DNA of 64,000 nucleotides from a bacterium (GTDB lineage Bacteria > Patescibacteriota > Minisyncoccia > Phycocordibacterales > Phycocordibacteraceae): the NCBI GenBank assembly GCA_037200965.1, contig JBBCGK010000001.1:704001-768000 (forward strand). The letters run 5' to 3'. The notes beneath the pieces were generated by a model. That model did no database searches. It was not told the DNA's origin and saw only the letters and a list, made by a program, of their open reading frames with translations. Positions 1,431 to 51,949 of this stretch are shown in pieces; position 1 is the stretch's first letter; each line of letters begins with the position of its first letter. The position numbers were made by a program, and so were the translations under genes.

Positions 1431-2648
1431 ATGGCTAGCCGGAAAACCAAAGTATTCATTTCCATGCCCTTCACTGGCAAGACGTTTGAGAATTTAAGCA
1501 GGGAGCGCGAGGATTTGCATGCGCTTGCGGCAACCTATGATTTGGAACTTCCGGAGCAGTTCATCGGGTATCAATTCGCAGAAGACTTTAAGACCAAGGA
1601 CTACGATCCGTCATTTGTTCTCGCCAAAGATAAAAAGTACATAAAAGAATCCGATATTGTTGTAGCCGATTTCTCGTCTCCTTCTATCGGCACCGATTGC
1701 GAAACTACTATCGCAAAGGAACTCTATGACAAAAAGATTATCGGCATCGTTCCGGACGTGAATAAGCGGAAGCACGCATGGCTACGCTTTTATTGCGACG
1801 ACTTCGTATCTTCGGTCGAGGAGGCGTTCGAGCTCATACGGGCGAAATACGCGAACCATAATCATCCGGAGCATGTCGACAAGCGCCAGTACGACTCTAT
1901 TGCCGTCGAGTACCAGCTTGTCGAAGCCACGCCTATCCAGAAGTACGTGTACGACCCGAACGCGCGGGAGCTTCTCGGGGAATACGGCACCGGCAAGAAA
2001 GTCGCCGTGTTCCATTGCGCGAGCGGGCATCGGGCGCGTATAGCCAAAGAAGCGGGCGCGAAGGAGGTTATCGGGATCGATACTTCCTTTAGGCAGATAA
2101 GTCTCGCTCGTGAGATAGAGCTTTCTAAGCCGCAGGGCATTGAATATCGGGTCCTGAATGCTTATTCGAAGGATTTCCCCGATGAATTTCCAAAGGAATA
2201 TAATGGAAGTCTTGACGTCGTACTCGGGTTTTTCCTCATAGATCACGCGCAGACGGAAACAGAGCTCCAAAAGCTTGCGGAAAACGTTTACTCGAGCCTT
2301 GCGCCCGGAGGAGTGTTTATAGCCATGCTCGACGACTCGGAGGCGCGTACCCCGACTGACCCGAAGTACGGTGTCGCGATAGAGCCTTTAGAAGGGAAGG
2401 GGGATGCGAGCCAGCGCCGCATAGTCATCTATCAGAACATGAAGGACGGCGAGGATCGGGCCGTACTCCATTTCTTCAATTTCGAATGGACACGAGCCAC
2501 GGTACAGAGGGTATTTTCCGAAGCCGGGTTCGCTGCCGAATTCAAGGACCCGTTCGTGGCACCGGAAGGGAAAGAGCGTCTGGGGGAGGACTTCTGGAGG
2601 AAATACGAGGAAGATCCGGACAACGTGCTGTTTATCTGCAGGAAATAA
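1431..2648 (+). CDS. two-domain protein: N-terminal DUF4062 / nucleoside 2-deoxyribosyltransferase-like (TIR/SLOG-fold) domain fused to a class I SAM-dependent methyltransferase
   Basis: The N-terminus KVFISMPFTGKTFENLSREREDL matches the DUF4062 signature (VFISSTFxDLxEER). A GTDCE stretch resembles the NDT catalytic Glu region. The C-terminal half carries a Rossmann MTase motif (KKVAVFHCASGHRARIAKEAGAKEVIGIDTS). Confidence 0.55.
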   Translation: MASRKTKVFISMPFTGKTFENLSREREDLHALAATYDLELPEQFIGYQFAEDFKTKDYDPSFVLAKDKKYIKESDIVVADFSSPSIGTDCETTIAKELYDKKIIGIVPDVNKRKHAWLRFYCDDFVSSVEEAFELIRAKYANHNHPEHVDKRQYDSIAVEYQLVEATPIQKYVYDPNARELLGEYGTGKKVAVFHCASGHRARIAKEAGAKEVIGIDTSFRQISLAREIELSKPQGIEYRVLNAYSKDFPDEFPKEYNGSLDVVLGFFLIDHAQTETELQKLAENVYSSLAPGGVFIAMLDDSEARTPTDPKYGVAIEPLEGKGDASQRRIVIYQNMKDGEDRAVLHFFNFEWTRATVQRVFSEAGFAAEFKDPFVAPEGKERLGEDFWRKYEEDPDNVLFICRK

Positions 2649-2684
2649 TTTCTTCGAGCAGGATTTGAAGTTCTTAAGACAGAT

Positions 2685-3191
2685 TTACTTCAAAATAAAT
2701 TCCTCCCGCAACAGCGCATAGCCGACAGCATCGACGTATTCTCCCGTCTCGCGGTTTTCCCATTCCTTCTTGTGTCGCGCTTCCTGTCGGAAGCCGAGGG
2801 ACTCGAATACTTTTCGCATAGCGGCGTTATCCTCCCTGGTCGTCGCGTATATCCTGCGGATTTTATCGTAGCGGCCGAAGATGTAGGCAATGCCTTCTTT
2901 AAGCAGCTTCGTTCCGACTCCTTTCCCGCGCGCGTCTTTGTCTACGCAGAGAGTAAACGAAGGCGCGTCGCTGCCGGAGTTCTTTATGTTATCGAAATGG
3001 ATGAATCCGAGCAGCTTGCTTTCGTCGTAGCATACGAGCGTCTGAGCCGTCTCGCTTGAGAAATAATTCTCATCCCGGATTGCAAGGCCCCGTTCGTCGA
3101 TTATCGGATCCAGAAAATACTCCCAGCGATTCGAAGTCAGGAGATGATGAATGGCAGGAAGATCTCCGGGTCTGAAAAGATGTATTTCCAT
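2685..3191 (-). CDS. GNAT family N-acetyltransferase
   Basis: Acetyl-CoA binding motif RGKGVGTKLLKEGIAYIF. Length 168 aa. Confidence 0.8.
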   Translation of the reverse strand: MEIHLFRPGDLPAIHHLLTSNRWEYFLDPIIDERGLAIRDENYFSSETAQTLVCYDESKLLGFIHFDNIKNSGSDAPSFTLCVDKDARGKGVGTKLLKEGIAYIFGRYDKIRRIYATTREDNAAMRKVFESLGFRQEARHKKEWENRETGEYVDAVGYALLREEFILK

Positions 3192-3364
3192 GGAATAAAT
3201 AGTACCACTTCCCGCTTCTAGAAAGCGCTACGCTTTTCTCCCTCGACGATCATTACACTTCTTGTCCATCGTGGACTCTTGGTGGGGAAGGCGTGAATAA
3301 AAACCAATCCCCCTCCTTAAGTGAGAGAGCTTTTCCTAATCTAAAGGCGAGATATACTAGACGC

Positions 3365-3820
3365 ATGACAACGCAACAGTATTCAATCCGCATCAACGCG
3401 CCGAAGGAAAAGGTTTGGAACACAATGCTCGGTCAGGACACGTATCGGGAATGGACGAGCGCCTTTAACGAAGGCGGACGTTTTGAGGGCAGCTGGGACC
3501 AGGGTTCCAAGATTCTTTTCCTTGGACCGGATCCTCTGACCGGAAAGGAGGGGGGTATGGTTTCCCGCATCAGGGAGAACAGACCGTATGAGTTCATCTC
3601 TATCGAGCACCTCGGTATTATGAAAGACGGTGTCGAAGATACGACGAGCGAAGAGGCAAAAAAGTGGGCTCCTGCATACGAAAACTATACTTTCACCGAA
3701 AAGGACGGTGTCACCGAAGTGTCCGTAGATATCGACATCGCTGAGGAGTTTGCCGATATGTTTAAAGAGGCGTGGCCGAAGGGTCTTGCAAAGCTTAAAG
3801 AAATCTCCGAAAAGCCCTAG
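3365..3820 (+). CDS. SRPBCC-superfamily protein (AHSA1/Activator-of-Hsp90-ATPase-like)
   Basis: MTTQQYSIRINAPKEKVWNTML...EW is the typical SRPBCC N-terminus. I placed the start at the internal ATG (3365) rather than the ORF-track start 3293, because 3293-3364 is AT-rich and promoter-like. Confidence 0.55.
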   Translation: MTTQQYSIRINAPKEKVWNTMLGQDTYREWTSAFNEGGRFEGSWDQGSKILFLGPDPLTGKEGGMVSRIRENRPYEFISIEHLGIMKDGVEDTTSEEAKKWAPAYENYTFTEKDGVTEVSVDIDIAEEFADMFKEAWPKGLAKLKEISEKP

Positions 3821-3837
3821 GTATGTATCTCTAAAAG

Positions 3838-3868
3838 AAAACAGCCCGCTTAGGTGGGCTGTTTTCTA
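3838..3868 (+). terminator. rho-independent terminator hairpin (CAGCCC-N8-GGGCTG then TTTTCT)
   Basis: GC stem followed by a T-run directly after the stop of the 3365..3820 CDS. Confidence 0.5.
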
Positions 3869-3880
3869 TCTAGCGGGATT

Positions 3881-4022
3881 GGTTATCCCAGGGTTAGAAC
3901 CTCGCTGATGCAAAGAAACTTCTATATTTCCTAAGTGGTAGGCATAATGAGTACACAAAAGCCAATACGTGCCTACAGGGTACCCAGAATTAGGTCGAGA
4001 GGTTAAAACCTCCTCCTACAGA
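3881..4022. repeat. intergenic repeat element, copy 1 (~80% identical to 6790..6990)
   Basis: Shared blocks with copy 2: tagcggg...gttagaacctcgctgat...tatatttcct...aaaagccaatacgtgcctacagggtacccagaattagg...gaggttaaaacctcc. Confidence 0.5.
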
Positions 4023-5309
4023 TTAGGATGCAATTACCTTGTAGATTCGGTTATCAGCCACTGTGTCCGTGTTCTCTAGGTCAACCATTTCAAATACATA
4101 GCCATACTCCTTGAGTGAGTCTTCGAGCAGTGCCAGCGCGTCTTTGTCCTTATTTGAGAAACCGATATAGACCACGCCGTTTGGCGCAAGATATTCCTTT
4201 GTATTCTTAAGAAACTTAACCAGTACGCTATCTTCGTTACTCTGCGTCTTGAATGCATGGGCAAGGCTTGTATCCGTCTTCTTAACCTTCTCATTATGGA
4301 AGGGCGGATTGAAGAAGATGATATCGAAGTGATTTTTATAGATTGAAGGTATTTTTTCGAATAGATTGCTCTCGAAAGCCACCCCCTTATCTTTTTGAGG
4401 AGAATTCTCAAGGTTGTATTTAGCGTTCTGAACGGCAGTTGAATTGATATCGCTCATCACCACTTCTTTTGCGCCTACATCAAGCGCCACGAGGCCCATC
4501 GCTCCATGACCACATGCAATATCGAGAACTTTCTTATCCTTCGATACTCCACGAACAAGCTTCGCGAACAGTTTTGAGGAACGGAATCGATTAGAAGGAT
4601 AGACGCCAGGGAAGACGGTCATTACGAGCTTCTCGAACAGGATTTTATAGTTGCTCGTGTTTTTGAGTACATGCTTATAGATCTCATTCGAGGTGAGAGC
4701 CGGATAGTATATCGGCGGGTAATAGTTTTTCTTTACAAGAGCGTCGAGGTACTTCAGCACGATGGAAGCCGCTTCCTCGCCATCCTTTGCATAGAAGAGG
4801 GGAGTGGAATCAGGATGCATCAAGCCTTCTGCGGCGAATGAGTCTATAAGCGCCTTGTATCGAGTGAAGTAATCACCCACAAGAACAATAGGCTTATTGA
4901 TTTCTCCAAGAATATTCAATATATGGATCTCTAGAATTTCGTGGAATGTACCTACTGCTCCCGGTAGCGCGATGAATGCATCCCCAAGCTCGATAAGTCT
5001 GCGCTGGCGCTCGTAGTGATCCGCATATCCTTCATAATCGGAGAAATAGGGACTTGGCTTAGAATCGCGATTTCCAAGGGCAACGCCAAACAGGTTGCCG
5101 CCTGCTTCCACCGTAGCCTTTGCTACCACGTCCATGAGGCCAGAAGGGCGTCCGCCGTTATTAATGCCGTATCCAGCCTCGCTTATAAGCCGAGCCACGG
5201 CCTTGGCGTCATGAAGATAAGACTCGTTCGTAGTTTCCATGCCGCTGGAGAATATGGTCACGCGAGGCGTATATCCCGCCTCGGTTTTCTTGCTCGGCAT
5301 ATTTGTCAT
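4023..5309 (-). CDS. two-domain protein: N-terminal LOG-family (lysine-decarboxylase-like / SLOG fold) domain fused to a small SAM methyltransferase (MTS, NPPFH-type amino-MTase)
   Basis: LOG motifs GGRPSGLMDVV (GGxxGLM) and LPGAVGTFHEILE (PGGxGTxxE). C-terminal MTase motif I LDIACGHGAMG and motif IV FDIIFFNPPFHNE, which is RsmC/HemK-like. Confidence 0.65.
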   Translation of the reverse strand: MTNMPSKKTEAGYTPRVTIFSSGMETTNESYLHDAKAVARLISEAGYGINNGGRPSGLMDVVAKATVEAGGNLFGVALGNRDSKPSPYFSDYEGYADHYERQRRLIELGDAFIALPGAVGTFHEILEIHILNILGEINKPIVLVGDYFTRYKALIDSFAAEGLMHPDSTPLFYAKDGEEAASIVLKYLDALVKKNYYPPIYYPALTSNEIYKHVLKNTSNYKILFEKLVMTVFPGVYPSNRFRSSKLFAKLVRGVSKDKKVLDIACGHGAMGLVALDVGAKEVVMSDINSTAVQNAKYNLENSPQKDKGVAFESNLFEKIPSIYKNHFDIIFFNPPFHNEKVKKTDTSLAHAFKTQSNEDSVLVKFLKNTKEYLAPNGVVYIGFSNKDKDALALLEDSLKEYGYVFEMVDLENTDTVADNRIYKVIAS

Positions 5310-5397
5310 ATGCGAGAAGTATTGTATAAATGCTATTCACTGTCAAGTGATGTCAGACAGTACTTGACAACAAGTCAGGCAGGAATATACTGACCAT

Positions 5398-6159
5398 ATG
5401 GAACTCAACAAATCCCTTGAAGCTTTGGGCTTCTCATCAAAGGAGATTCAGGTTTATTTGGCGGTGATAAAGCTCGGTAAGACTACTCCAGCCGAAGTGG
5501 CGAAGATTACGAAAATCGGCCGCCCCACGGTCTATAATCTTGTTAAGAGTCTTATATCGAAGGGTGTGATAGCGGAGGATAAGGCCGATGCTGTGCTGCA
5601 CATCGTCGCACTGCCTCCCGAAGGCCTCCGAGCTACTATCGAACGGTCCAAGGTCGAGCTTTCAAAGAAAGAAGAACTTGTTGATGCGGCTATCGAAGAG
5701 CTTGGACTCATCCACTCAGGCGAGACCTATCCGGTGCCGCGCCTCCGTTTCGTGGAGGAGAACGAGCTACACGATTACCTTTTTCAGAATGCGGTTAAGT
5801 GGAATGAAAGCGTCCTCTCTAAGGACGGAATCTGGTACGGCTTCCAAGACCATAGTTTCGTAGAGAATTATGGAGATTGGATTGATTGGACGGTAAAGAA
5901 ACTCAAGGGAACGAAGTACAAGGTTCAACTATTCAGCAACGCTTCGAAAATTGAGGAACAGTTAGAAGGGAAGATCCCAGAGCGCTCAATCAAGTTCCTA
6001 AAGAGCTCTCGCTTTACGGCAACTACCTGGGTGGTAGGGGATTACCTCGTGATGATCTCAACCTCGAAGGCCCCGTTCTATTTGGTGGAGATTCACGATG
6101 CTCTTATGGCAGAGAATATGCGCGAAGTGTTTAAGAATATGTGGGAGATAAATAAATAA
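5398..6159 (+). CDS. TrmB-family HTH transcriptional regulator
   Basis: N-terminal winged-helix EIQVYLAVIKLGKTTPAEVAKITKIGRPTVYNLVKSLISKGVI. Length 253 aa, typical of TrmB. Confidence 0.6.
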   Translation: MELNKSLEALGFSSKEIQVYLAVIKLGKTTPAEVAKITKIGRPTVYNLVKSLISKGVIAEDKADAVLHIVALPPEGLRATIERSKVELSKKEELVDAAIEELGLIHSGETYPVPRLRFVEENELHDYLFQNAVKWNESVLSKDGIWYGFQDHSFVENYGDWIDWTVKKLKGTKYKVQLFSNASKIEEQLEGKIPERSIKFLKSSRFTATTWVVGDYLVMISTSKAPFYLVEIHDALMAENMREVFKNMWEINK

Positions 6160-6164
6160 GAATT

Positions 6165-6725
6165 ATGGATCGATACCTTGATCAGTGGGCGCGAATTAAC
6201 CGCTGGCATAGAAAAGTCAATACTTTTTATGAAGGAGAGAGAAGTGTTCTTGAGGATAATGAAAGATTGGATATGGTCCGAACTTTTTTCATAGAATGCT
6301 TTCATTTAAAGGATTGGATCAAAGCTGACTTTCCGAATCTTTCAGTAGCTACCGAAAGAATATTTGATCGAGTAGAAGGCGAGGAATGTTTCAAAATTTG
6401 TGCAGACCTAGCGAATGCATCGAAACACGTGGATCTTAATAAGGCAGTCAGAAAAGATAAAGAAACTAAAATCGGTACTCAAGGAATTACAATCATGGTT
6501 GATCCTATTAAATGGGATTCAGACCCGAAGGATTATTTGCCGCCCGTGTGTAAATACCGATGGGACATCATAGCGTCAAGGAAGAAGTTTGATGTAAAAG
6601 AGCTAGCCGATGAGTGTATTGAGAGTTGGAAGAAGTTTATGCGCAAGAATGGACTATCTATAGAGATTGTTGCTCGATTGTCCATTCCAATAGATGGAAC
6701 ATCTTTTGATGCCAAAGCGTCTTAG
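6165..6725 (+). CDS. hypothetical protein
   Basis: 186-aa ORF starting 6 nt after the TrmB-like gene in an AT-rich island. No motif recognised. Confidence 0.45.
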   Translation: MDRYLDQWARINRWHRKVNTFYEGERSVLEDNERLDMVRTFFIECFHLKDWIKADFPNLSVATERIFDRVEGEECFKICADLANASKHVDLNKAVRKDKETKIGTQGITIMVDPIKWDSDPKDYLPPVCKYRWDIIASRKKFDVKELADECIESWKKFMRKNGLSIEIVARLSIPIDGTSFDAKAS

Positions 6726-6789
6726 TACCGAAAGTAACAGTGATACTCCAGTCGTTTAAGAGATTACGGGAGAGGTGGAGGAAAGTTCC

Positions 6790-6990
6790 TAGCGGGTGCT
6801 TTTATGAAACTAGGTGGAATTGGATATCCGAGATAAGAACCTCGCTGATACTAAACAGCTCCTCATATTTCCTTCGTGTAGTGGATGACTGGGTATCAAA
6901 ATGAGCATACAAAAGCCAATACGTGCTTATAGGGTGCCCAAAACTAGGCGGAGGGGTTAGAACCTCCCATATTTTGGTAGTATTATCTAC
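6790..6990. repeat. intergenic repeat element, copy 2 (see 3881..4022)
   Basis: ~80% identity to copy 1 over ~150 nt. Ends in the hairpin-capable GGAGGGGTTAGAACCTCCC. A third short fragment (gttagaaccccc) lies at ~8078-8095. Confidence 0.5.
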
Positions 6991-7497
6991 ATGAAGATCG
7001 AATGGCTCGGAAAACGAATAGCAGTGGTTGGAGTAAGCGCATCAGGAAAATCAACTTTTGCGCGCAGACTTGCTACTAAGACTGGTCTGCCCCTGACGCA
7101 CATTGATGCCGTGATGTGGAAGCCGGGATGGGATTATATTGGCGATGAAGAAACAGTCCGCCAGCTCAAAGAAATCAGCAAGCAGGATGAATGGATCATC
7201 GAAGGATTCATCGATAAGAATGCTCTCGAAGCAGTTCTGACTCGTGCCGAATCAATAATCTATCTCGACTATCCGCGATACATACCTGCGTGGAGATACA
7301 TAAAACGATGGTTTAAGCATCGAAAGAATCCGCGCCCAGAATTGGAGGGCAGTCCAGAGAAATTCAGCTTTGAATTTCTGAAGCGGGTATGGGATAAGAA
7401 GGAAGTCTATCGGCTAAACGAATTTATTAAGAAAATGCCTGATACAAGCAAGATTCTGAGGCTCAAGTTGCCGAAGGAAGCAAATACTTTTCTATGA
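6991..7497 (+). CDS. P-loop NTPase, adenylate-kinase-like 'DNA topology modulation protein' (FlaR-like) family
   Basis: Walker A GVSASGKST near the N-terminus. Size 168 aa. Confidence 0.55.
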   Translation: MKIEWLGKRIAVVGVSASGKSTFARRLATKTGLPLTHIDAVMWKPGWDYIGDEETVRQLKEISKQDEWIIEGFIDKNALEAVLTRAESIIYLDYPRYIPAWRYIKRWFKHRKNPRPELEGSPEKFSFEFLKRVWDKKEVYRLNEFIKKMPDTSKILRLKLPKEANTFL

Positions 7498-7509
7498 GAG
7501 TAGTTACAT

Positions 7510-8028
7510 ATGGCTAGACTTATTATTCTCAATGGACCTCCTGGTGTAGGCAAATCTACGATTGCTGCACGTCTGCATAAGGATATTTCAAATTCGATAC
7601 TTCTGGATATAGATGAGATTCGTCGCTCCATTCCAAATTATAAAGAGCAACGTAAGGAAAGTCTGATTCTGGCGTATCAGGAGGCAATGCGGACCATAGA
7701 AGACTGTTTAGCTAAAGATCAGACCGTTATTATAGATAAGGTTGTTTCGGACTCAGATACACTCGATTCTTTTGTTGAGGCAGGGAATAAACAGGGTGTC
7801 GTAATAAATGAGATTCTCCTATTTGCAGACAAGGAATCAGTACAGAAGCGAGCAGACGAGCGTGGTTACAAACCAGGAAGTTTACTTACCCGTGAGCGAG
7901 TAGGAGACATGTGGGATCAAGTGAGTGTACTCAGAAGAAGTAGGAATAACGCTGTTGTTATGGATACGACTCATTTAAATCTTGAAGAAGTGTACAAAAA
8001 TGTAAGAGGAATAATCGGGCAAGTATAA
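7510..8028 (+). CDS. P-loop kinase-like ATPase (AAA_33 / zeta-toxin / shikimate-kinase-like)
   Basis: Walker A NGPPGVGKST. Length 172 aa. Tandem to the previous kinase-like gene. Confidence 0.5.
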   Translation: MARLIILNGPPGVGKSTIAARLHKDISNSILLDIDEIRRSIPNYKEQRKESLILAYQEAMRTIEDCLAKDQTVIIDKVVSDSDTLDSFVEAGNKQGVVINEILLFADKESVQKRADERGYKPGSLLTRERVGDMWDQVSVLRRSRNNAVVMDTTHLNLEEVYKNVRGIIGQV

Positions 8029-8153
8029 CCCGCCGGTAGGGGTGGAAGAGAAGTCCGGAATTTCTGAGAAGTTTCTGCAGAAAGTTAGAACCCCCAATCT
8101 GTTAAGACGCGCCAACACGAATGGTTACTTAACTCGGCCTTTCGTGAAATGAT

Positions 8154-8566
8154 GTGGAGGTGGGGAGGTTGAACTCCCGTCCGACCTGCGCTTGAGAGCG
8201 AGTCTACGGCGCGTAGTTCCGATTAGGGTTTAAGAGAGGATGCGAGGAAACGGAACGAAACCATTCCCCTCCGATCCCGTTATCTAAGCCGCGGGCCGGG
8301 AGAGCCGCGAACCGATCGCACAGAAGATTCCGCCCGCTGGCCCGGCTGTGCGCACCCGGGACCAGGGACGTCGCTTAGGCGAGGTGAGCCGAAGCTCGAA
8401 CCTTATGCGTAAGCGAACGCGAAGTTCCCTGCGGTAAAGTAAGGAGACTTCACGCCTACAACAGTTTTGTTTGCAGGTAGAGTTTCCCGCCAGATTAAAG
8501 TGATGGGCGGGAGTGCACTGCGCCGCACGTCTCTCAAGGTACAGGCCGTCAAAGCCGGTCACCCCC
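8154..8566 (-). ncRNA. ssrA: tmRNA (ssrA), one-piece
   Basis: The minus-strand 5' end GGGGGUGACCGGCUUUGACGG matches the tmRNA 5' consensus (GGGGCUGAUUCUGGAUUCGACGG). The 3' end GGACGGGAGUUCAACCUCCCCACCUCCA is a tRNA-Ala-like T-arm plus acceptor. There is an internal ORF ending ...AGNFAFAYA-UAA. The gene sits adjacent to smpB. Confidence 0.7.
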
Positions 8567-8604
8567 GGGGAAGGAGAGACTCGAGTGTCTCGCGCTCTCC
8601 GGGA

Positions 8605-9048
8605 TTACCGATTCTTCAGTATACGTTCGGCGTCGCGTTTCGCGTCCTTTTTCTTGAGATCCTCCCGTTTGTCCTTCTTCCCCTTGCCGCGGACGATCGC
8701 AACGCGCGCCTTGATATACCGCTTACTACTATACACCGAAAGTGGCACTACTGTCAATCCCTTCTTCGATTCGGCATCGGCCAGTTGCGCTAGTTCGGGC
8801 TTCGTCATAAGAAGACGGCGGTTGCGTTCCGGATCGTAGCTCTCCGGAGTGTTCTTGGCCTGATAGGGAGGGATGGTTGCGCCGACCAGATAGGCTTCTC
8901 CGCCGCGGACGAGCACCCGCGCTCCTTCGAGGCTCCCGAGCTTCCCGCGAAGCGCCTTCGCCTCGCCGCCCGAGAGCTCGAGGCCCGCATCGAATGTCTC
9001 AATGATCTCGTATTTGAGGCCCGCTTTTTTGTTTTCGATAAGATTCAT
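8605..9048 (-). CDS. smpB: SsrA-binding protein SmpB
   Basis: MNLIENKKAGLKYEIIETFDAGLELSGGEAKALR... is a canonical SmpB. Confidence 0.9.
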   Translation of the reverse strand: MNLIENKKAGLKYEIIETFDAGLELSGGEAKALRGKLGSLEGARVLVRGGEAYLVGATIPPYQAKNTPESYDPERNRRLLMTKPELAQLADAESKKGLTVVPLSVYSSKRYIKARVAIVRGKGKKDKREDLKKKDAKRDAERILKNR

Positions 9049-9878
9049 GTCGTGAGAAGGTCGAGAATCTCTTCGCGCCTTGCCATGACGTCATCGTAGC
9101 CCATGTAGAACGCTTCGGCGACCTTATGCGGATCGCGCGTCGTAAGGCCGACGGGAAGCGGCCGCGAGGGCGAGAGGTGAAGTCCCCGCACGCTGTTCGG
9201 GAGAACGGGGGTGTCGATGCGGTCCGTGTAATCGAGAAGCACGCCTTCAAGCGGCTCGCGCTGCCAGTACGCGTAGAGCCGGAAGAGCAGCTTCGCCCAC
9301 CGTTTCTTCGGCGTGAGATTGGTGATGAGCAGAATGCGCGTCGCGCCTTCCGCAACAGCCTTCTCAATGAGGGCCTGGGTGCCAAGCCCGATGCCGCCGT
9401 CCATATATAGATGGCTCCCGAGAGCTATGTGCCGGTGATAAAACAGCGGAATCGCCATCGCGGCGCGGAGCACCTCGTGGGGATCGAGCCAAGTATCGTT
9501 TCCGATAAAGCGCGTCGCCCCGCTTGCCTCGTCGGTCACGGGGACGAAATAACGCGACGGCGAGCGCGCGAGGCGGTCCGTATCGAGCGGAATGTACTGC
9601 TTGATAACCGTGTCGACCAGATAGTCGACATTGAACCTCGGGAAAGGGAAGTAGCGGATAAAGTTAGGGGAAGGAATGAATTTTATCCATGCCCGCTCGC
9701 CCTCATCGTACTGGCCGGAGAGATAGTACATGAGGGATCCCGTGCTTCCCGAGGAAGCGAGCGCTATGTCTGGCGCGCCAAGTCCGAGTTCTTTCCCGAG
9801 TGCGGTCAGTGCGCCCGCGGCATACGCGCACTTCATGCCTCCGCCGGAGGCGATAACCGCGGTTTTCTCCTCGCGCAT
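9045..9878 (-). CDS. patatin-like phospholipase
   Basis: Oxyanion hole GGGMKCAYAAG and GxSxG serine motif (SSGSTGS). The 4-nt overlap with smpB suggests co-transcription. Confidence 0.75.
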   Translation of the reverse strand: MREEKTAVIASGGGMKCAYAAGALTALGKELGLGAPDIALASSGSTGSLMYYLSGQYDEGERAWIKFIPSPNFIRYFPFPRFNVDYLVDTVIKQYIPLDTDRLARSPSRYFVPVTDEASGATRFIGNDTWLDPHEVLRAAMAIPLFYHRHIALGSHLYMDGGIGLGTQALIEKAVAEGATRILLITNLTPKKRWAKLLFRLYAYWQREPLEGVLLDYTDRIDTPVLPNSVRGLHLSPSRPLPVGLTTRDPHKVAEAFYMGYDDVMARREEILDLLTT

Positions 9879-12383: not shown

Positions 12384-12455
12384 CCACCCATAGCTCAATG
12401 GTAGAGCGATCGACTTATATTCGATTGGCTCCAGGTTCGAGTCCTGGTGGGTGGA
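12384..12455 (+). tRNA. tRNA, anticodon read as UAU (Ile2-type); no encoded CCA
   Basis: Cloverleaf: acceptor CCACCCA/TGGGTGG, D-arm GCTC-AATGGTA-GAGC, anticodon arm ATCGA-CTTATAT-TCGAT, T-arm CCAGG-TTCGAGT-CCTGG, discriminator A. Confidence 0.7.
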
Positions 12456-13280
12456 CTACCGAGGGAATATATCAACGAGTTCGCCCGAACTATAAAAGTC
12501 CGCGGCAAGACCGCCGAAGCTATACGAAACACCGAGAATATCGATGGCCGCGCCGCCTACCTGCGGATTCGCGTTCGGGGTCGAATGCGCGAAGCCGATG
12601 TTGTAAAGCGTCGAGACGACCGCGGGGTTTCCTTCGATAGGGAAGCCCGCCTTCCTCCACTGCGCTTCCACCTCCTTTATATAGAGTCCCGCATAGAGAT
12701 AGCTCCAATAGTGGTCGTGCTGGTCGGTCATGCGCGCGAAGCGTTCGCTTTCTACGTCGGTCGTCCGGAAGTCGAGCGCGTGCCCGAACTCAGGCCCCGG
12801 ATAGTACGGCGAGGCCGGATCCTTCAGATTATTCTCCACTTGGATCGCCGTGTCTTCTTTCATCCCCATCACGCCCCAGGAAAACTGTGTCTGAGAACCC
12901 AGGATCTTGAGCGGATAGAAGAATTGCTTATAAAACTCCCGTTCCGTGAAGAAAAGCCGCAGCTGTTCGGCGACCAAATTCGCGGCGATGAGCCGCGCGG
13001 GAACGCCCGAGTCGGCAGCCGCCCGGTCGAGCGCCGCGGTATCTTTCCGAAGCGCCGCCTCGAGCACCTGCCATTCTTCGGTCTTCTGCCAGGGCGTGCC
13101 ACGCGGATCGCTAGGCGCGAAGTCGGTCGATGTCGCGGAACCGATGAACGCTTCGCGCTGGAGGTCGACGATGCCGCTCGTGTTGGTGAGTCCGAACCGG
13201 ACCGCGAAGTATCCGACGACGAGGAAGAAGCCGATCGCGGCGAATATATAAATGACGATCGAGACGACTTTCTTAAGCAT
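12456..13280 (-). CDS. hypothetical membrane-anchored protein
   Basis: N-terminal TM helix (VVSIVIYIFAAIGFFLVVGYFAV) and balanced composition. The opposite-strand ORF 12447..13316 is R-rich and was judged spurious. Confidence 0.5.
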   Translation of the reverse strand: MLKKVVSIVIYIFAAIGFFLVVGYFAVRFGLTNTSGIVDLQREAFIGSATSTDFAPSDPRGTPWQKTEEWQVLEAALRKDTAALDRAAADSGVPARLIAANLVAEQLRLFFTEREFYKQFFYPLKILGSQTQFSWGVMGMKEDTAIQVENNLKDPASPYYPGPEFGHALDFRTTDVESERFARMTDQHDHYWSYLYAGLYIKEVEAQWRKAGFPIEGNPAVVSTLYNIGFAHSTPNANPQVGGAAIDILGVSYSFGGLAADFYSSGELVDIFPR

Positions 13281-22011: not shown

Positions 22012-22101
22012 GGAGACGTGGCTGAGTGGTCGAAAGTACCTCACTGCTAACGAGGCAGGGATTAACGTCCCTCGAGGGTTCGAATCCCTCCGTCTCCGCC
22101 A
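22012..22101 (+). tRNA. tRNA-Ser (anticodon GCU), CCA encoded
   Basis: GGAGACG acceptor, long variable arm GCAGGGATTAACGTCCCTC, anticodon loop CTGCTAA, T-loop GGTTCGAATCC, ...CGTCTCC-G-CCA. Confidence 0.85.
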
Positions 22102-22155
22102 GATGTCCAAATTCGAACCCAAGCAGAATAAGGGTATTTGGACTAAGATAATGAC

Positions 22156-23250
22156 ATGGCAACCAAAACGGCAAATTCAGGTCTTCATCAGGCCAAAACT
22201 GCCAAAAAGGACGAGTTTTATACCCAACTCGTTGATATTGAAAAAGAGCTGAAACACTACAAGGACCAATTTCGTGGCAAGGTGATTTTTCTGAATTGTG
22301 ACGATCCGTACGAAAGCAACTTCTTCAAGTATTTCGCTGGTAATTTCAATGCTCTCGGATTAAAGCAGCTTATTGCCACGAGCTACAAGCGATCGCCTAT
22401 TGCCAACACCCAATTAGGACTCTTTACCGATGGTGAGGTAGTGTCCGCAACTAAAGGCCGCCCAAAAGTGACTGCCAACAAATTCGTTATTAACGAAGTT
22501 GATGACATAAATGGTGACGGTTCTTTTGACTTGCGTGATATTGCGGAGCAGCTTAAAGCTAATAAAAATAACGAATGGACTCCATTAGACGGCGAAGGAG
22601 ATTTTCGGAGTCCGGAGAGCGTAGAACTGCTCAAGCAAGCTGATATTGTGGTGACAAACCCGCCCTTCTCGCTTTTCGGCGAGTATATTGATCAACTTGT
22701 TCAATACCAGAAAAAGTTTCTGATATTAGGAAATCAGAACGCTATTAAATATAAAAATGTCTTCAAGCTTATAAAGGAGAATAGGATGTGGCTAGGCTAT
22801 GACAATGGAGGAACGAAATGGTTCCAGGTGCCGGATGACTATGATATACAAACCGAATCAAGAATCAAAATAGAAAACGGTGTGAAATATTTTAGTATGG
22901 GCAGCATTGTGTGGTTTACAAATCTTGACACAACGAAGCGTCACATAGATTTCACAATGTACAAAAAATACAAACCCGAAGCATATTCAAAGTACGATAA
23001 TTACGACGCGATCGAGGTTTCTAGGGTGGTAGAAATACCAATGGACTATGGCGGCGAAATGGGAGTTCCGATTACCTTTTTAGATAAATATAATCCTGAC
23101 CAATTTGAGATTATTGATCTGCTAAACCGATACACCTTGTTTGACTCTCAGCAAACGAACGAAGATGTCAGACGAAGGCACTCCCACACTTGTAATATCA
23201 ATGGCAAGGCCGTATTTTCTCGAATTTTAATAAAGAACAAGCAAATTTGA
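22156..23250 (+). CDS. N6-adenine-type DNA methyltransferase (NPPF motif; EcoRI-methylase-like family)
   Basis: DEFYTQ...VIFLNCDDPYES followed by IVVTNPPFS (motif IV). AT-rich codon usage distinct from the host. Confidence 0.6.
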   Translation: MATKTANSGLHQAKTAKKDEFYTQLVDIEKELKHYKDQFRGKVIFLNCDDPYESNFFKYFAGNFNALGLKQLIATSYKRSPIANTQLGLFTDGEVVSATKGRPKVTANKFVINEVDDINGDGSFDLRDIAEQLKANKNNEWTPLDGEGDFRSPESVELLKQADIVVTNPPFSLFGEYIDQLVQYQKKFLILGNQNAIKYKNVFKLIKENRMWLGYDNGGTKWFQVPDDYDIQTESRIKIENGVKYFSMGSIVWFTNLDTTKRHIDFTMYKKYKPEAYSKYDNYDAIEVSRVVEIPMDYGGEMGVPITFLDKYNPDQFEIIDLLNRYTLFDSQQTNEDVRRRHSHTCNINGKAVFSRILIKNKQI

Positions 23251-23258
23251 AAATAATT

Positions 23259-24362
23259 ATGAAAATCGAGCTAAATAAGGTTTCGGTCCGTGAAGTGGTG
23301 GCAGAATATAAAGACAGCGCTGAGGAGGGTGTTGTGGCCTATGACGGTAAGCTCGATGTGCGCCCAAAGTATCAGCGAGAATTCGTATATAAAGACAAAC
23401 AACGCGATGCCGTTATTGATACTGTCAGAAAAGGGTTTCCACTTAACGTGATGTATTGGGTAAAGACCGACGAAGGAAATTTTGAAGTATTGGACGGGCA
23501 GCAGAGAACAATCAGTCTCGGTCAGTATGTAAACGGTGACTTCTCTGTTGATTTCAACGGTCGTCTGGCTATGTTCCACAACCTTACCAAAGAAGAGCAG
23601 GAGCAGATTCTGAACTATGAACTGATGATTTATTTCTGCGAAGGAAACGATAAGGAAAAGCTCGATTGGTTCAAGATCATCAATATTGGCGGTGAGCGTC
23701 TAACCGATCAGGAGTTACGCAATGCTGTCTATACCGGTCCGTGGCTTTCTGATGCCAAGCTCAAATTCAGTAAATCAAACTGTGCGGCATACCTCCTCGC
23801 AAACGATGGCGGTGCGCTGCTCAAGGGCTCTCCAATTCGGCAAGAATACTTGGAAACTGCGATCTCATGGATAAATAACGGGGATGTGGCGGGCTACATG
23901 GCAAAACACCAGCACGATGAGAATGCGGAAGAATTATGGAAGTACTTCCAAAGTGTTATTGAGTGGGTACGCAGGACCTTCCCAAACTACCGCAAAGAAA
24001 TGGCGAGCGTAAATTGGGGGGAACTATATAACGAATACAAAGACAAAAAACTCGACGACACAAAACTAGAAGAGGAAATCGCACGATTGATGCAAGACGA
24101 AGATGTAACGAAGAAATCCGGTATTTACCCTTATGTCCTTACGGGCGAGGAACATCACCTTTCAATCCGTGCGTTTAACGACAATATGAAGCGGGAGGCG
24201 TATGAGCGCCAGAAAGGTATCTGTGTGAAATGCGGGAAGAAGTTTGAGATCGAGGAAATGGAAGCCGACCACATTACACCGTGGCACCAGGGAGGAAAAA
24301 CAAAAGCCGAAAATTGCCAGATGCTATGTAAAGACGATAACCGGAGAAAATCTGGAAAATGA
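23259..24362 (+). CDS. DUF262 (ParB/GmrS-like, DGQQR) domain fused to C-terminal HNH endonuclease
   Basis: LDGQQRTISL (DUF262 signature). C-terminal CVKCGKKFEIEEMEADHITPWHQGGKTKAENCQMLCKDDN is a canonical HNH Cys4/His-Asn finger. The ORF-track start 23247 is a TTG; the ATG at 23259 lies 8 nt after the MTase stop. Confidence 0.7.
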   Translation: MKIELNKVSVREVVAEYKDSAEEGVVAYDGKLDVRPKYQREFVYKDKQRDAVIDTVRKGFPLNVMYWVKTDEGNFEVLDGQQRTISLGQYVNGDFSVDFNGRLAMFHNLTKEEQEQILNYELMIYFCEGNDKEKLDWFKIINIGGERLTDQELRNAVYTGPWLSDAKLKFSKSNCAAYLLANDGGALLKGSPIRQEYLETAISWINNGDVAGYMAKHQHDENAEELWKYFQSVIEWVRRTFPNYRKEMASVNWGELYNEYKDKKLDDTKLEEEIARLMQDEDVTKKSGIYPYVLTGEEHHLSIRAFNDNMKREAYERQKGICVKCGKKFEIEEMEADHITPWHQGGKTKAENCQMLCKDDNRRKSGK

Positions 24363-24997
24363 TAATGAAACAAGGAGATCTCCATATCTGGGTAAGAAAA
24401 TTACTCCAACAGCTTCGTACCCAAACCGATTCAAAAGAAGATTTATATACAAATATTCTTCTCTGGGCACACGATAAGCAAGAGTCTGGATTCTCATGGG
24501 AGGAAATGAGATCAAAGTTCTCACTGAATGCAGAACAAGAACATTGGGTTAGGAATATTTTCCTAACTACTTCAGATGGAGATAGGAAATTCTTTGAACA
24601 TTTACGGAACGATGATTCCGTATCACCGAATATTTATTACTACGCTTTAAATGAAAAAGGGATCACAGCGGCAATAAACTACAAGGGCTTGCGACATGCT
24701 GAAAAGAGCAGCACCCAAGCGTTATGGGTCGCAAGTATATCTATTTTTCTGGCAGCTATCGGTTTGTTTTTTACAGTTAAACAAACGAATTTGGCCGAGA
24801 CCCAAAGTATCTCGGAAAGGATAAATCAAGCAAGGAGTATACAATCAGCGCTTGAATTCTGTCAGCAGAATCCTGATTCTCAAGATTCTGGTCTCTATGA
24901 GATCTCGACTGGTAAATCTGCTTCATGTCCTCAAGTAGTGCGTAACTATTCCTCTACCTCCTCACTGTTGGATAGAATCAAAAGTCTGTTTAAGTAA
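24359..24997 (+). CDS. small protein with one central TM helix (unknown function), third gene of operon
   Basis: Its ATG overlaps the upstream stop (ATGA). The TM segment is ALWVASISIFLAAIGLFFTV. Confidence 0.5.
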   Translation: MIMKQGDLHIWVRKLLQQLRTQTDSKEDLYTNILLWAHDKQESGFSWEEMRSKFSLNAEQEHWVRNIFLTTSDGDRKFFEHLRNDDSVSPNIYYYALNEKGITAAINYKGLRHAEKSSTQALWVASISIFLAAIGLFFTVKQTNLAETQSISERINQARSIQSALEFCQQNPDSQDSGLYEISTGKSASCPQVVRNYSSTSSLLDRIKSLFK

Positions 24998-25405
24998 CTG
25001 GAGAATTCGGATTTATTCTATTGAATAATCGATCGCACTCTTTCTTTTAGACGATTTAGGCTGTGGCACCTCAAACCACTCCGGATGAGCTTTATATATA
25101 GCCCTCAATTCCTGTATACTTTTATCAAGTTTCCCGAAGGTAAGCCGTGTTTTTGGTTCGAATTTCGGGACACCGCCTCCGCATCTAACAGCTAGCACCA
25201 GGAACCTCGGGTCTAGCTGGTGTCTAAAAACATCCGGTACTTTCTCTTACTTGTTCAATATAAAAAGGACGGGCCGGAACTGTAGAAGTTCCGGCCCATG
25301 TACTGTGTTCCCGTATTGAGTTTTGTATATTGCTTGATCAGGTGGTCCTACCTGTTGCAGGCGTGAGGAGAGACTTACTCTCCTCACGTTTATAACCTGC
25401 AGGAC

Positions 25406-25807
25406 TTATAGGTCGTCCATACACCATGCGCACATCGACACATGGCTCAACGCTTCAGTCAGGCGTCCGACGGAAGGGGCATGAAACTCATAGGGAGTCA
25501 TATGCACGTCCTTCCATTGAAGTTTCGACGCTATTCCAAAACATTGGTAGCCGTCGCTTTCGCGGTCTGGGTCTTCGAGGTTCTGAACTTCAGAATCCCA
25601 ACTCTGGAAGCCGAGAGCTCCCGCGTCTTTATCTCTAAGATTGTCATCGACAACCTTAAAAATGCCCGCGGATAATTCTTCCACGAGTAGCCACGACCTT
25701 TGTGACAACCGTACGCCCGCAAGGGCGTTTATACGGCCTCCGAGAGAGGACGCATGGTCGGCATGGACGTATATCCGGTGCCGACGGACAAATAGCAATC
25801 TGAACAA
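25406..25807 (-). CDS. hypothetical protein (possible gene fragment)
   Basis: 133-aa ORF in a 52% GC patch between the island and IS30. No motif recognised. Confidence 0.3.
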   Translation of the reverse strand: MFRLLFVRRHRIYVHADHASSLGGRINALAGVRLSQRSWLLVEELSAGIFKVVDDNLRDKDAGALGFQSWDSEVQNLEDPDRESDGYQCFGIASKLQWKDVHMTPYEFHAPSVGRLTEALSHVSMCAWCMDDL

Positions 25808-25886
25808 CTGCTCAACTCCTCTGTTAGATTTTCAGGGAACACAGCGCCTAAAGTGTAACAGTGTACATAACATATGTCAATACCCG

Positions 25887-26876
25887 GGCTTGAATCCGCT
25901 CCTGAAACGCAACACCTGACGTAGGCTCGGTGGATGAGCCATCACCACCTTTCGCGCGGCGAGCGGGTCGCGCTTGCTGCGTTTCTCCGGACAGGAAAGA
26001 GCCGGGCCGAATGCGCCCGTCTTCTTGGCGTCCACCGCTCGACCATCTCGCGGGAACTGCGGCGCGGCGGTACCGAATACAAGGCGGTCGCCGCAGACAA
26101 GGAAGCCGCACGGCTGCGGAGAGAATCAAAACAACGAGCGCGGAAGATCGAGAACGACCATTCACTCGAACGAGAAATCGTTCGACTCCTGAAGAAGGGA
26201 CACTCTCCCGAACAGGTATCAGAAGAGGTGCGGTTCGTCTCGGACGACGCCATATACGATTGGATTGAACGTTCCCGAAAAGATCTCGCGGTACTCCTGC
26301 CCCAGCGCGGCAAGGTGCGCCGCCGGTACGGGAAGAATACGGGCGCGGTCCAAGGATGGACGAAATCCGTACGCAGTATCGCAGAGCGACCGAAGGCGGC
26401 GAACGACCGCTCCCGCATCGGCGACTGGGAAGGAGATACGGTCGCCGGACGGGATCGCGCCCGTCTGCTCGTGCATGTCGACCGGAAGAGCCGGTTCATC
26501 CTGGCCACGATCACGGCAAACGGGACTGCCGATACGATCCATGCCGCTGCGGGAGCCTCGTTCAAGGGACTTCCCGTTCGAACCATCACGTATGACCGCG
26601 GCAGCGAGTTCGCTCTCTGGCGCATGATTGAGCGCGATACCGGCGCAACCGTGTACTTCGCGAACGCGCATCATCCGTGGGAACGGGGCACGAGCGAGAA
26701 CTCGAACGGCCTCCTGCGGCGGTTCTTTCCGAAAGGAACGCCGATCGGCGAGAAGCTCCAGCGGGACGTTGACCGGGCCGTGCGGCTCATCAATCATCGG
26801 CCGAGGAAATGTCTCGGCTGGAAGACGCCCTGCCGCGTGTTTGGCCGCTGTTGCGTTTCAGGCTAGGATTCAAGCC
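25887..26876 (+). mobile_element. IS30-family insertion sequence
   Basis: Terminal inverted repeats: IRL GGCTTGAATCCGCTCCTGAAACGCAACA (25887-25914) and IRR, reverse-complemented, GGCTTGAATCCTAGCCTGAAACGCAACA (26849-26876). The single transposase ORF ends inside the IRR. Confidence 0.8.
25934..26866 (+). CDS. IS30-family DDE transposase
   Basis: N-terminal HTH (RAECARLLGVHRSTISRELRRG) and DDE core (DWEGDTV...TYDRGSEF...HPWERGTSEN). Confidence 0.85.
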   Translation: MSHHHLSRGERVALAAFLRTGKSRAECARLLGVHRSTISRELRRGGTEYKAVAADKEAARLRRESKQRARKIENDHSLEREIVRLLKKGHSPEQVSEEVRFVSDDAIYDWIERSRKDLAVLLPQRGKVRRRYGKNTGAVQGWTKSVRSIAERPKAANDRSRIGDWEGDTVAGRDRARLLVHVDRKSRFILATITANGTADTIHAAAGASFKGLPVRTITYDRGSEFALWRMIERDTGATVYFANAHHPWERGTSENSNGLLRRFFPKGTPIGEKLQRDVDRAVRLINHRPRKCLGWKTPCRVFGRCCVSG

Positions 26877-51590: not shown

Positions 51591-51882
51591 AGCGGGGTAG
51601 AGGAGTGGTACCTCGGGAGGCTTGAATTATTCGGGCGTGCGCGCGAGCAATTGCGCGTAAGATCATCTGCCAAATTCGGTGAAACCCTCCTGCGCGAAAG
51701 CACAGACGGCAACGCCGAGCCAAGCCCTAAGAGCAATCGAAGGGAAGGTGTAGAGACTAGACGGTAGACATCCCGCAGGGGATGAAGGCATAGTCCAGAC
51801 CACAAATCATTCGTGCGAGAGCGGCGAAAGCCGTAGTGGTAGGCATAACCTCCAGACTCGGGTTCGAATCCCGACCCCGCAA
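51591..51882 (+). tRNA. tRNA(CAU) (Met/fMet/Ile2-type) interrupted by a ~221-nt group I intron in the anticodon loop
   Basis: 5' exon AGCGGGG-TA-GAGG-AGTGGTA-CCTC-G-GGAGG-CT (51591-51622). 3' exon CATAA-CCTCC-AGAC-TCGGG-TTCGAAT-CCCGA-CCCCGCA-A (51844-51882). The exons join to a normal cloverleaf with anticodon loop CUCAUAA. Confidence 0.65.
51623..51843 (+). ncRNA. group I intron (self-splicing ribozyme) within tRNA(CAU)
   Basis: The 5' exon ends in U and the intron ends in G. Core elements: P-like CAATTGCGCGTAAG; R-like GTGTAGAGACTAGAC (consensus GUUCAGAGACUA); S-like AAGGCATAGTCC (consensus AAGAUAUAGUCC). The P7 pairing is GACUA/UAGUC. Confidence 0.6.
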
Positions 51883-51949
51883 CAAGCTTGTGATAGTGGA
51901 ACCCAGACCGGTGCGCCTGCAAAAGCAGTTCAGTATCGGTCCGGATCAA

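Follow-up and report, generated by a model that had tools for sequence, protein, structure and literature searches.

The locus and the fusion protein

The DNA analysed here is a stretch of 64,000 nucleotides (the window) from contig JBBCGK010000001.1 of a Patescibacteriota genome, and the gene that concerns us lies close to its beginning (Table 1). Its product carries the NCBI name class I SAM-dependent methyltransferase (SAM, S-adenosylmethionine; MTase, methyltransferase), and we found that it joins such an MTase to an N-terminal domain of the nucleoside 2-deoxyribosyltransferase (NDT) superfamily, a pairing that may serve to release a nucleobase from a nucleotide and methylate it. A search of 5.8 billion proteins recovered 49 full-length homologues with 43-83% identity, and an alignment of 37 sequences contained 55 invariant columns distributed across both halves of the protein. 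Given these homologues and invariant columns, the gene is clearly real and does not represent a chance open reading frame (ORF). Pfam, NCBIfam and PADLOC recognise just the class I SAM MTase, at about residues 190-300 (approximately 196-297 in Pfam), and a Pfam scan of residues 1-150 gave no match at E<=1, including to PF13271 (DUF4062), PF05014 and TIR. The Pfam results and structural models together bear out the architecture proposed in the initial annotation, namely a two-domain fusion of an N-terminal NDT/TIR-type flavodoxin-like fold of about 140 residues with a Rossmann-fold SAM MTase. Both halves fold confidently. The full-length model had a predicted local distance difference test score (pLDDT) of 88.6 and a predicted template modelling score (pTM) of 0.67, with pLDDT falling to about 62-65 over residues 141-160, which include the linker between the domains.

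The fusion is carried by metagenome-assembled genomes (MAGs) of Parcubacteria and Saccharibacteria, and additionally by MAGs labelled Woesearchaeota and Nanoarchaeota, for which the neighbouring genes were uninformative as to an archaeal origin. Two paralogues, 71% and 52% identical to the window protein, are present in the single-cell genome SB-2103-1078-G15 (loci L010 and L012). A Parcubacteria MAG (L009, 8001-9224) has the gene in two ORFs (8001-8381 and 8505-9224), which may be due to a frameshift or pseudogene, or else to an error in the sequencing.

The N-terminal domain and its active-site residues

When 21 N-domains of the fusion family were scanned singly, 20 of them matched PF05014, all below threshold (at best 23.3 bits against a cutoff of 28.8), and five matched PF13271 only along the first strand and helix, with scores of 13-17 bits where the cutoff is 24.7 (best E 0.0056). 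A profile built from 21 such domains (A2) retrieved DNPH1/Rcl as the first match among PDB sequences (E 0.002-0.003), aligned on the catalytic motif, and a true NDT at E 0.95. An exhaustive hidden Markov model (HMM) search of 1.84 billion representatives with the N-domain returned 324 matches. Comparison of the fusion N-domains with their stand-alone relatives using hhalign gave a probability of 99.9% (E 3.9e-36) over 135 columns; among 81 of these relatives, each about 140 residues long, 71 matched PF05014, 50 PF15891 and 21 DUF4406, and none matched DUF4062. The AlphaFold model of residues 1-150 (pLDDT 87, pTM 0.84) pointed in the same direction: its top 50 PDB matches in Foldseek were all NDT-superfamily enzymes, headed by BcmB, a cytidine 5'-monophosphate (CMP) N-glycosidase. 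Its fold is the NDT-type flavodoxin-like fold, and TIR domains were not the closest matches in this PDB search, the searched set of which may contain no DUF4062 structures. Thus, it is well supported that the N-domain is an NDT-superfamily member of the DNPH1/MilB/BcmB type and not a DUF4062 domain.

The initial annotation had assigned this region to DUF4062 on the strength of residues 7-29 (KVFISMPFTGKTFENLSREREDL, nucleotides 1449-1517), an assignment that is not supported, as the window protein lacks a PF13271 match and those of its relatives are sub-threshold. DUF4062 was shown in 2026 preprints to comprise TIR-like NADases that are distantly similar to TIR and NDT alike, and this distant relationship accounts for the faint DUF4062 echo at the N-terminus; profile, fold and context all speak against membership in the family itself. 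A VFIS-type N-terminal motif together with a conserved Glu is therefore insufficient for a DUF4062 assignment, which helps to delimit this recently characterised family of NADases.

An HMM alignment with DNPH1 revealed identical spacing of D67, S85 and E91 with D80, S98 and E104, respectively, D67 standing 24 and S85 six residues ahead of E91, which opens a helix in a G-x-x-x-E motif. Of these, D67 corresponds to the general acid, S85 to the 5'-phosphate-binding serine (MilB S97) and E91 to the nucleophile that forms the covalent intermediate (MilB E103). E91 is the last residue of the GTDCE stretch (residues 87-91), the glutamate of which had been likened in the initial annotation to the catalytic glutamate of NDTs; this likeness is upheld by the alignment. 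Further correspondences include G87 with DNPH1 G100 of the phosphate loop, E42 with DNPH1 E55, which activates the water that hydrolyses the intermediate, and Q43 with DNPH1 H56 and MilB E62, which contact the base and leaving group. On the first strand and its loop, F9 corresponds to DNPH1 Y24 and MilB F17, the position discriminating at the 2'-carbon, and F14, assigned by spacing, to MilB F22, which stacks on the base. True nucleoside-specific NDTs have an Asp where the phosphate-binding Ser stands. The mapped catalytic residues are invariant in the 37-sequence alignment of the fusion family; among the stand-alone relatives an Asp occupies position 67 in 109 of 123, and none of the 120 that cover the columns of G87 and E91 departs from these two residues. 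The human DNPH1 sequence used in the alignment agreed with the mechanism paper at each of 11 residue numbers that the paper quotes.

Position 9 is an invariant Phe in the fusion family and a near-invariant Tyr in the stand-alone relatives that cover strand 1. In MilB, Phe17 accepts ribose, and the F17Y substitution reverses the preference from CMP to deoxycytidine 5'-monophosphate (dCMP). F9 would then be a documented MilB-type variant, which argues against a deoxyribosyl-specific enzyme, and not against membership in the NDT superfamily. From this set of aligned residues we infer that the N-domain is a hydrolytic ribonucleoside 5'-monophosphate N-glycosidase, with ribonucleoside 5'-monophosphates as the predicted substrate class. 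Gln43 is unlike His56 and Glu62 alike, so that the mapping extends to the substrate class and not to the base.

The methyltransferase domain, fused relatives and genomic context

The similarity of the C-terminal domain to the N-methyltransferases ToxA and XrdM, in sequence and fold, spans the entire catalytic domain and takes in the N-terminal lid. Y154 and Y161 of this lid correspond to ToxA/XrdM Tyr7 and Tyr14/Phe14, and F268 of the substrate pocket to the stacking Phe112/Trp112; all three are invariant or nearly so in the fusion family. Positions Tyr7, 14 and 112 of XrdM and ToxA have been shown to matter by mutagenesis. In the same pocket, D271 and H272, which like F268 are invariant in the family, replace the His/Asn115-Tyr116 pair, and an 8-residue insertion follows strand 3. 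The motif I and post-I elements, on which the initial annotation had made its MTase assignment depend, are both present, the former in an altered form. Motif I reads V193-x-H195-x-(G/A)-S-G199 in the family (more fully, V-x-(V)-L/F-H-x-(G/A)-S-G) and VAVFHCASG in the window protein, and the adenosine-binding positions D217, D/N243 and D262 are retained. Stand-alone relatives of the MTase, which are about 30% identical and come from Gammaproteobacteria, Polynucleobacter, Actinomycetota and Sorangium, retain motif I in its canonical form together with the H/N-Y pair, suggesting that the fused MTase is a distinct subfamily under strong constraint. The retained positions are consistent with SAM binding, and the fused MTase is probably still SAM-dependent, with a different acceptor.

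The proteins most closely related to the N-domain, with E values of 1e-22 to 1e-37, all carry MTases, and these are of different families; across the clade as a whole the MTase partners represent at least four families. These relatives include fusions with RsmF_N and RsmB/F (P0056, P0060, P0065), fusions with Methyltransf_25 in which the NDT-like domain is C-terminal (P0055, P0058), fusions with MTS-type MTases bearing an N-x-P-F/W motif (P0062, P0063), and triple fusions of about 700 residues with both RsmB/F and MTS domains (P0054, P0064). Two or more clusters that share less than 50% identity were seen for each of these architectures, and hence they are not assembly chimeras. All MTase-fused relatives share the signature F9-x-M-P-F14-G-K, E42-Q43-F44, K66-D67, S85-x-G87 and E91; the stand-alone relatives that cover strand 1 mostly have Tyr9 and lack the EQF motif. 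No full-length stand-alone member of this clade was seen among the N-domain HMM matches, three short ones of which (112-129 residues) were not inspected.

A second fusion of comparable kind is encoded in the same window, combining a LOG domain (PF03641/TIGR00730) with an MTS/HemK-like MTase. This LOG-MTase is conserved in about 25 full-length homologues (41-89% identity) from genomes of the candidate phyla radiation (CPR) type, Candidatus Kerfeldbacteria among them. Its MTS domain shares 26-30% identity with the MTS domains attached to the NDT-like clade, which makes it an independent fusion of the same kind and rules out a module swap of the LOG and NDT-like domains on a single MTS MTase. Both domains of the NDT-MTase fusion belong to known superfamilies; what we did not find described is the fusion itself, as the initial annotation had supposed, the NDT-like clade associated only with MTases, and the altered MTase pocket. 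The searchable literature yielded nothing relevant on NDT-MTase or LOG-MTase fusions, nor a description of the recurring pairing of nucleotide-glycosidase-type domains with MTases.

Table 1. Coordinates of the fusion gene, its domains and motifs, and related features of the window
Feature	Nucleotides	Strand	Basis or remark
Fusion gene, ATG start, 405 aa and TAA stop	1431..2648	+	ORF call, full-length homologues, alignment A1
N-terminal NDT-superfamily domain, aa 1-140, predicted ribonucleoside 5'-monophosphate N-glycosidase	1431..1850	+	
Strand 1 and loop FISMPFTGK (F9-K17)	1455..1481	+	hhalign column mapping
E42-Q43-F44 motif	1554..1562	+	HMM alignment to DNPH1
K66-D67	1626..1631	+	Alignment to DNPH1
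SIGTDCE	1683..1703	+	Alignment to DNPH1/MilB
Inter-domain linker, aa 141-152	1851..1886	+	Low model confidence
ToxA/XrdM-type class I SAM-dependent N-methyltransferase domain, aa 153-405	1887..2645	+	
Substrate lid YDSIAVEY	1890..1913	+	Alignments
Altered motif I, VAVFHCASGHRAR	2001..2039	+	V193 and H195 invariant; LDLACGxG in relatives
Post-I strand VIGID with invariant D217	2067..2081	+	SAM-ribose position of class I MTases
Substrate pocket FLIDH	2232..2246	+	Contains F268 and D271-H272
LOG-MTase fusion	4023-5309	-	N-P-P-F motif
tmRNA	8152-8566	-	
smpB	8605-9048	-	

The neighbourhoods of the fusion gene vary by lineage and are of a housekeeping character, being found in a ribosomal-protein operon, or near polA, cysS or smpB/ftsH. 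In the first of these settings (L003, 6001-7227) the otherwise conserved operon is interrupted by the fusion gene between the genes for L5 and S14. All-against-all clustering of the ORFs of 11 distinct loci revealed no conserved operon partner, with no neighbour family occurring in more than two loci. Given the lack of a recurrent partner gene, and the conservation of the fusion in its 49 homologues, the two domains are likely to constitute a functional unit. Searches with tblastn for the LOG-MTase, LOG alone and MTS alone found none in 22 loci; these include 16 fusion-bearing loci from about 10 distinct places, in all of which the surrounding 6-8 kb on either side were covered, so that the co-occurrence of the two fusions raised in the initial annotation is not supported. 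Neither a set of 50,697 phage records nor IMG/VR contained a copy of the fusion, and PADLOC recognised only the MTase half of the protein, through one generic MTase model. Together with the variable housekeeping neighbourhoods, these results speak against the role in a conflict system that had been entertained in the initial annotation.

In the window, the fusion gene (51.7% GC) starts a low-GC block at 1431-8100 (39-52%, against about 60% in the core genome) that abuts the tmRNA gene, a classic site of island integration. Besides the fusion gene and the LOG-MTase, the block carries genes for a GNAT protein, an AHSA1-like protein, a TrmB-like regulator, a 186-residue protein with no assignment and two P-loop kinases, one of which matches Zeta-toxin/AAA_33. 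In the closest relative, at 83% identity (L001), the smpB/patatin/ftsH flank is shared and the genes in between are different. An indirect hint of a nucleobase link comes from a PfkB-family kinase gene, found 46 bp downstream of the fusion in one locus (L014), with a homologue near the fusion in another (L009), which is a minority of the loci.

We also considered the loci of the stand-alone MTase relatives, where no NDT-like gene was found beside the MTase in a Rosetta-stone check. Two of these relatives sit in apparent operons. In Polynucleobacter (L018, 6662-8738) the MTase gene follows a cytosine/purine/uracil permease gene, the end of which it overlaps, and in a gammaproteobacterium (L017, 7498-14400) it is preceded by a cytidine-deaminase-type gene and followed by one for a nonribosomal peptide synthetase with an embedded MTase domain. 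The permease and deaminase neighbours link this MTase lineage indirectly to free nucleobases.

Several features elsewhere in the window deserve mention. A second low-GC island (22012-26866) directly follows tRNA-Ser(GCT) (22012-22101), and encodes an EcoRI-type adenine methyltransferase (22156-23250), a GmrSD_N and HNH endonuclease (23247-24362), an unassigned ORF of 212 residues and an IS30-like transposase (25934-26866). At 51591-51883 on the forward strand, a tRNA gene has its anticodon loop split by a group I intron (Rfam RF00028, 58.8 bits, 51614-51815); a standard tRNA scan missed this tRNA, which ARAGORN, with introns allowed, identified as tRNA-Ser(TGA) with a 221-nucleotide intron. 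A tRNA-Ile with the anticodon TAT (UAU), an uncommon bacterial isoacceptor, is present at 12384-12456 on the forward strand.

Proposed activity, alternatives and known systems

The identities of the two domains, the conservation of their catalytic residues and the conservation of the fusion led us to propose that the protein is a self-contained enzyme that releases the base from a ribonucleoside 5'-monophosphate and N-methylates it, a proposal for and against which we consider the balance to be even. The N-domain would bind the ribonucleoside 5'-monophosphate, with Glu91 attacking C1' to give a covalent ribosyl-5-phosphate-enzyme intermediate and Asp67 protonating the leaving base, after which a Glu42-activated water would free ribose 5-phosphate. 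The C-domain would then place the methyl group on a ring or amide-type nitrogen of a flat N-heterocycle that it clamps beneath Phe268 and the lid of Tyr154 and Tyr161. In the simplest form of coupling, the methyl acceptor would be the base handled by the N-domain, either after its release or while still attached, and the predicted products would be an N-methylated free nucleobase and ribose 5-phosphate. The ribonucleotide substrate class, like the coupling of the two activities and the sequence in which they act, goes beyond the observed conservation. In bacimethrin biosynthesis the N-glycosidase BcmB acts first and a methyltransferase follows, and the cleave-then-methylate logic suggested here parallels that pathway. 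More speculatively, in organisms that live on salvaged nucleotides an unwanted one might be removed from the pool and its base capped against re-salvage, or the methylated base might itself be used as a metabolite.

Several observations weigh against this proposal. No member of the family reaches the curated Pfam threshold of PF05014 or PF13271, and for the window protein the link to PF05014 runs via the stand-alone relatives in the hhalign comparison. The equivalence of F9 and Tyr24 comes from hhalign and from knowledge of the family, as the local HMM alignment to DNPH1 stopped short of strand 1. In motif I the acidic residue has given way to the invariant V193, and only one of the three glycines is left in the window protein. 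The pair that binds the carbonyl beside the target nitrogen in the ToxA-type enzymes is replaced by D271-H272, and therefore the acceptor is not expected to be toxoflavin-like. The nucleobase-related permease and deaminase genes neighbour the MTase in just two of the five stand-alone loci. The occurrence of the same clade on RsmB/F MTases with a full RNA-MTase architecture fits less easily with a free-base pathway. Furthermore, the full-length model leaves the relative placement of the domains unfixed, and given its pTM and the floppy linker we make no claim of a fixed channel between them.

A wider reading of the same data, which we consider unlikely, is that the N-domain represents an unrecognised NDT clade that exists only as an MTase partner, and that together with the LOG-MTase it points to a 'cleave-and-methylate' chemistry in CPR/DPANN-type symbionts. 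Under the same tentative estimate, this chemistry could take the form of pool sanitation, in which the base is removed and N-methylated so as to become unsalvageable, or of a built-in nucleosidase that clears an adenosine-type by-product.

The shared clade signature can also be understood in a manner that leaves the target of the fused MTase unrelated to the glycosidase. Since the signature is the same whether the attached MTase is of the ToxA-like, RsmB/F, MTS or Methyltransf_25 type, at either terminus and in triple fusions, it implies one common ligand, and the NDT-like domain might be a general companion of MTases that, for example, cleaves S-adenosylhomocysteine (SAH) or 5'-substituted adenosines to adenine and a ribosyl product, thereby relieving product inhibition in organisms with minimal methyl-cycle enzymes. 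Phe9 would suit a ribose ligand with its 2'-hydroxyl, and the LOG-MTase provides an independent nucleosidase-MTase fusion in the same window that is conserved in the CPR. The main weakness of this explanation lies in S85 and G87, which match the 5'-phosphate-binding Ser and Gly of DNPH1 and MilB, whereas SAH has no phosphate; moreover, LOG enzymes need a 5'-phosphate, so that the analogy with the LOG-MTase favours nucleoside monophosphates, and we know of no NDT-family enzyme that cleaves SAH. On these grounds we regard it as unlikely.

Just as improbable, in our view, is a non-catalytic or regulatory role, in which the N-domain senses a nucleotide or docks on a nucleotide of RNA and the MTase acts on RNA or another macromolecule. 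The presence of the domain on complete RsmF_N and RsmB/F architectures of RNA 5-methylcytosine MTases and the location of one homologue within a ribosomal-protein operon are in line with such a role. Nevertheless, the invariance of E91, D67, E42 and S85 over 37 sequences, down to 43% identity, would be unusual for a module that only binds; in addition, the best sequence matches of the C-domain are small-molecule N-MTases with a closing lid and not RNA MTases, and the fusion protein has no RNA-binding domain. Finally, that the N-domain is a DUF4062/TIR-like NADase acting with its MTase partner as effector or sensor of an anti-phage or conflict system is very improbable, for even though weak PF13271 matches cover the strand and helix of the N-terminal motif, DUF4062, TIR and NDT are acknowledged distant relatives sharing a catalytic Glu, and the gene lies in a low-GC block beside the tmRNA gene, the evidence for NDT is far stronger in sequence, profile and fold, the phosphate Ser with the DNPH1-type Asp/Glu set suits a mononucleotide and not NAD, and the genomic context described above offers no sign of defence.

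Returning to the proposed base-releasing and methylating enzyme, public annotation shows no more than a generic MTase, as the N-terminal third escapes both Pfam and NCBIfam; once this third is read as an intact DNPH1/MilB-type nucleotide N-glycosidase, the protein becomes a bifunctional enzyme that can be put to the test. Salvaged nucleotides are commonly regarded as essential to CPR bacteria and DPANN archaea. If the proposal is true, a nucleotide-cleaving and base-methylating enzyme would bear on how these organisms clean, use or signal with their nucleotide pools.

Among the known systems, the DUF4062 proteins (Swarozyc, Evangelion/NIR, TEP1) resemble the fusion in their broad flavodoxin-like fold class, catalytic Glu and a similar VFIS-type N-terminal strand, but the fusion differs from them in having the phosphate-binding Ser and the Asp acid of the mononucleotide-hydrolase type and in lacking a sensor or auxiliary domain and a defence context. 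The LOG-MTase likewise unites a nucleotide N-glycosidase-type domain and a SAM MTase in a conserved fusion restricted to CPR-type genomes; both its glycosidase and its MTase are of other families, and in none of the other genomes examined do the two fusions lie together. ToxA and XrdM, the N-methyltransferases of toxoflavin and xenorhabdin, share about 23% identity with the C-domain, which departs from them in the Asp271-His272 pair in place of His/Asn115-Tyr116, in motif I (V-x-H-x-(G/A)-S-G as against D-L-A-C-G-x-G), in the insertion after strand 3, in its fusion to a glycosidase and in its location outside a natural-product cluster. MilB and BcmB are the CMP and 5-hydroxymethyl-CMP N-glycosidases of mildiomycin and bacimethrin biosynthesis. 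There the MTase is encoded separately and is of a different type, and the genes are gathered in biosynthetic clusters, unlike the fusion loci. Arg23 of MilB, which gates the hydroxymethyl group and the phosphate, is T15 in the fusion and the cytosine-reading Glu62 is Gln43, so that the base probably differs from that of MilB and BcmB. DNPH1/Rcl, a 2'-deoxynucleoside 5'-phosphate N-hydrolase, sanitises the pool of 5-hydroxymethyl-deoxyuridine 5'-monophosphate (hmdUMP). The fusion, at about 16-19% identity to it, adds an MTase and has Gln in place of the base-contacting His56 and Phe in place of Tyr24, the last of which predicts that it acts on ribonucleotides rather than deoxyribonucleotides.

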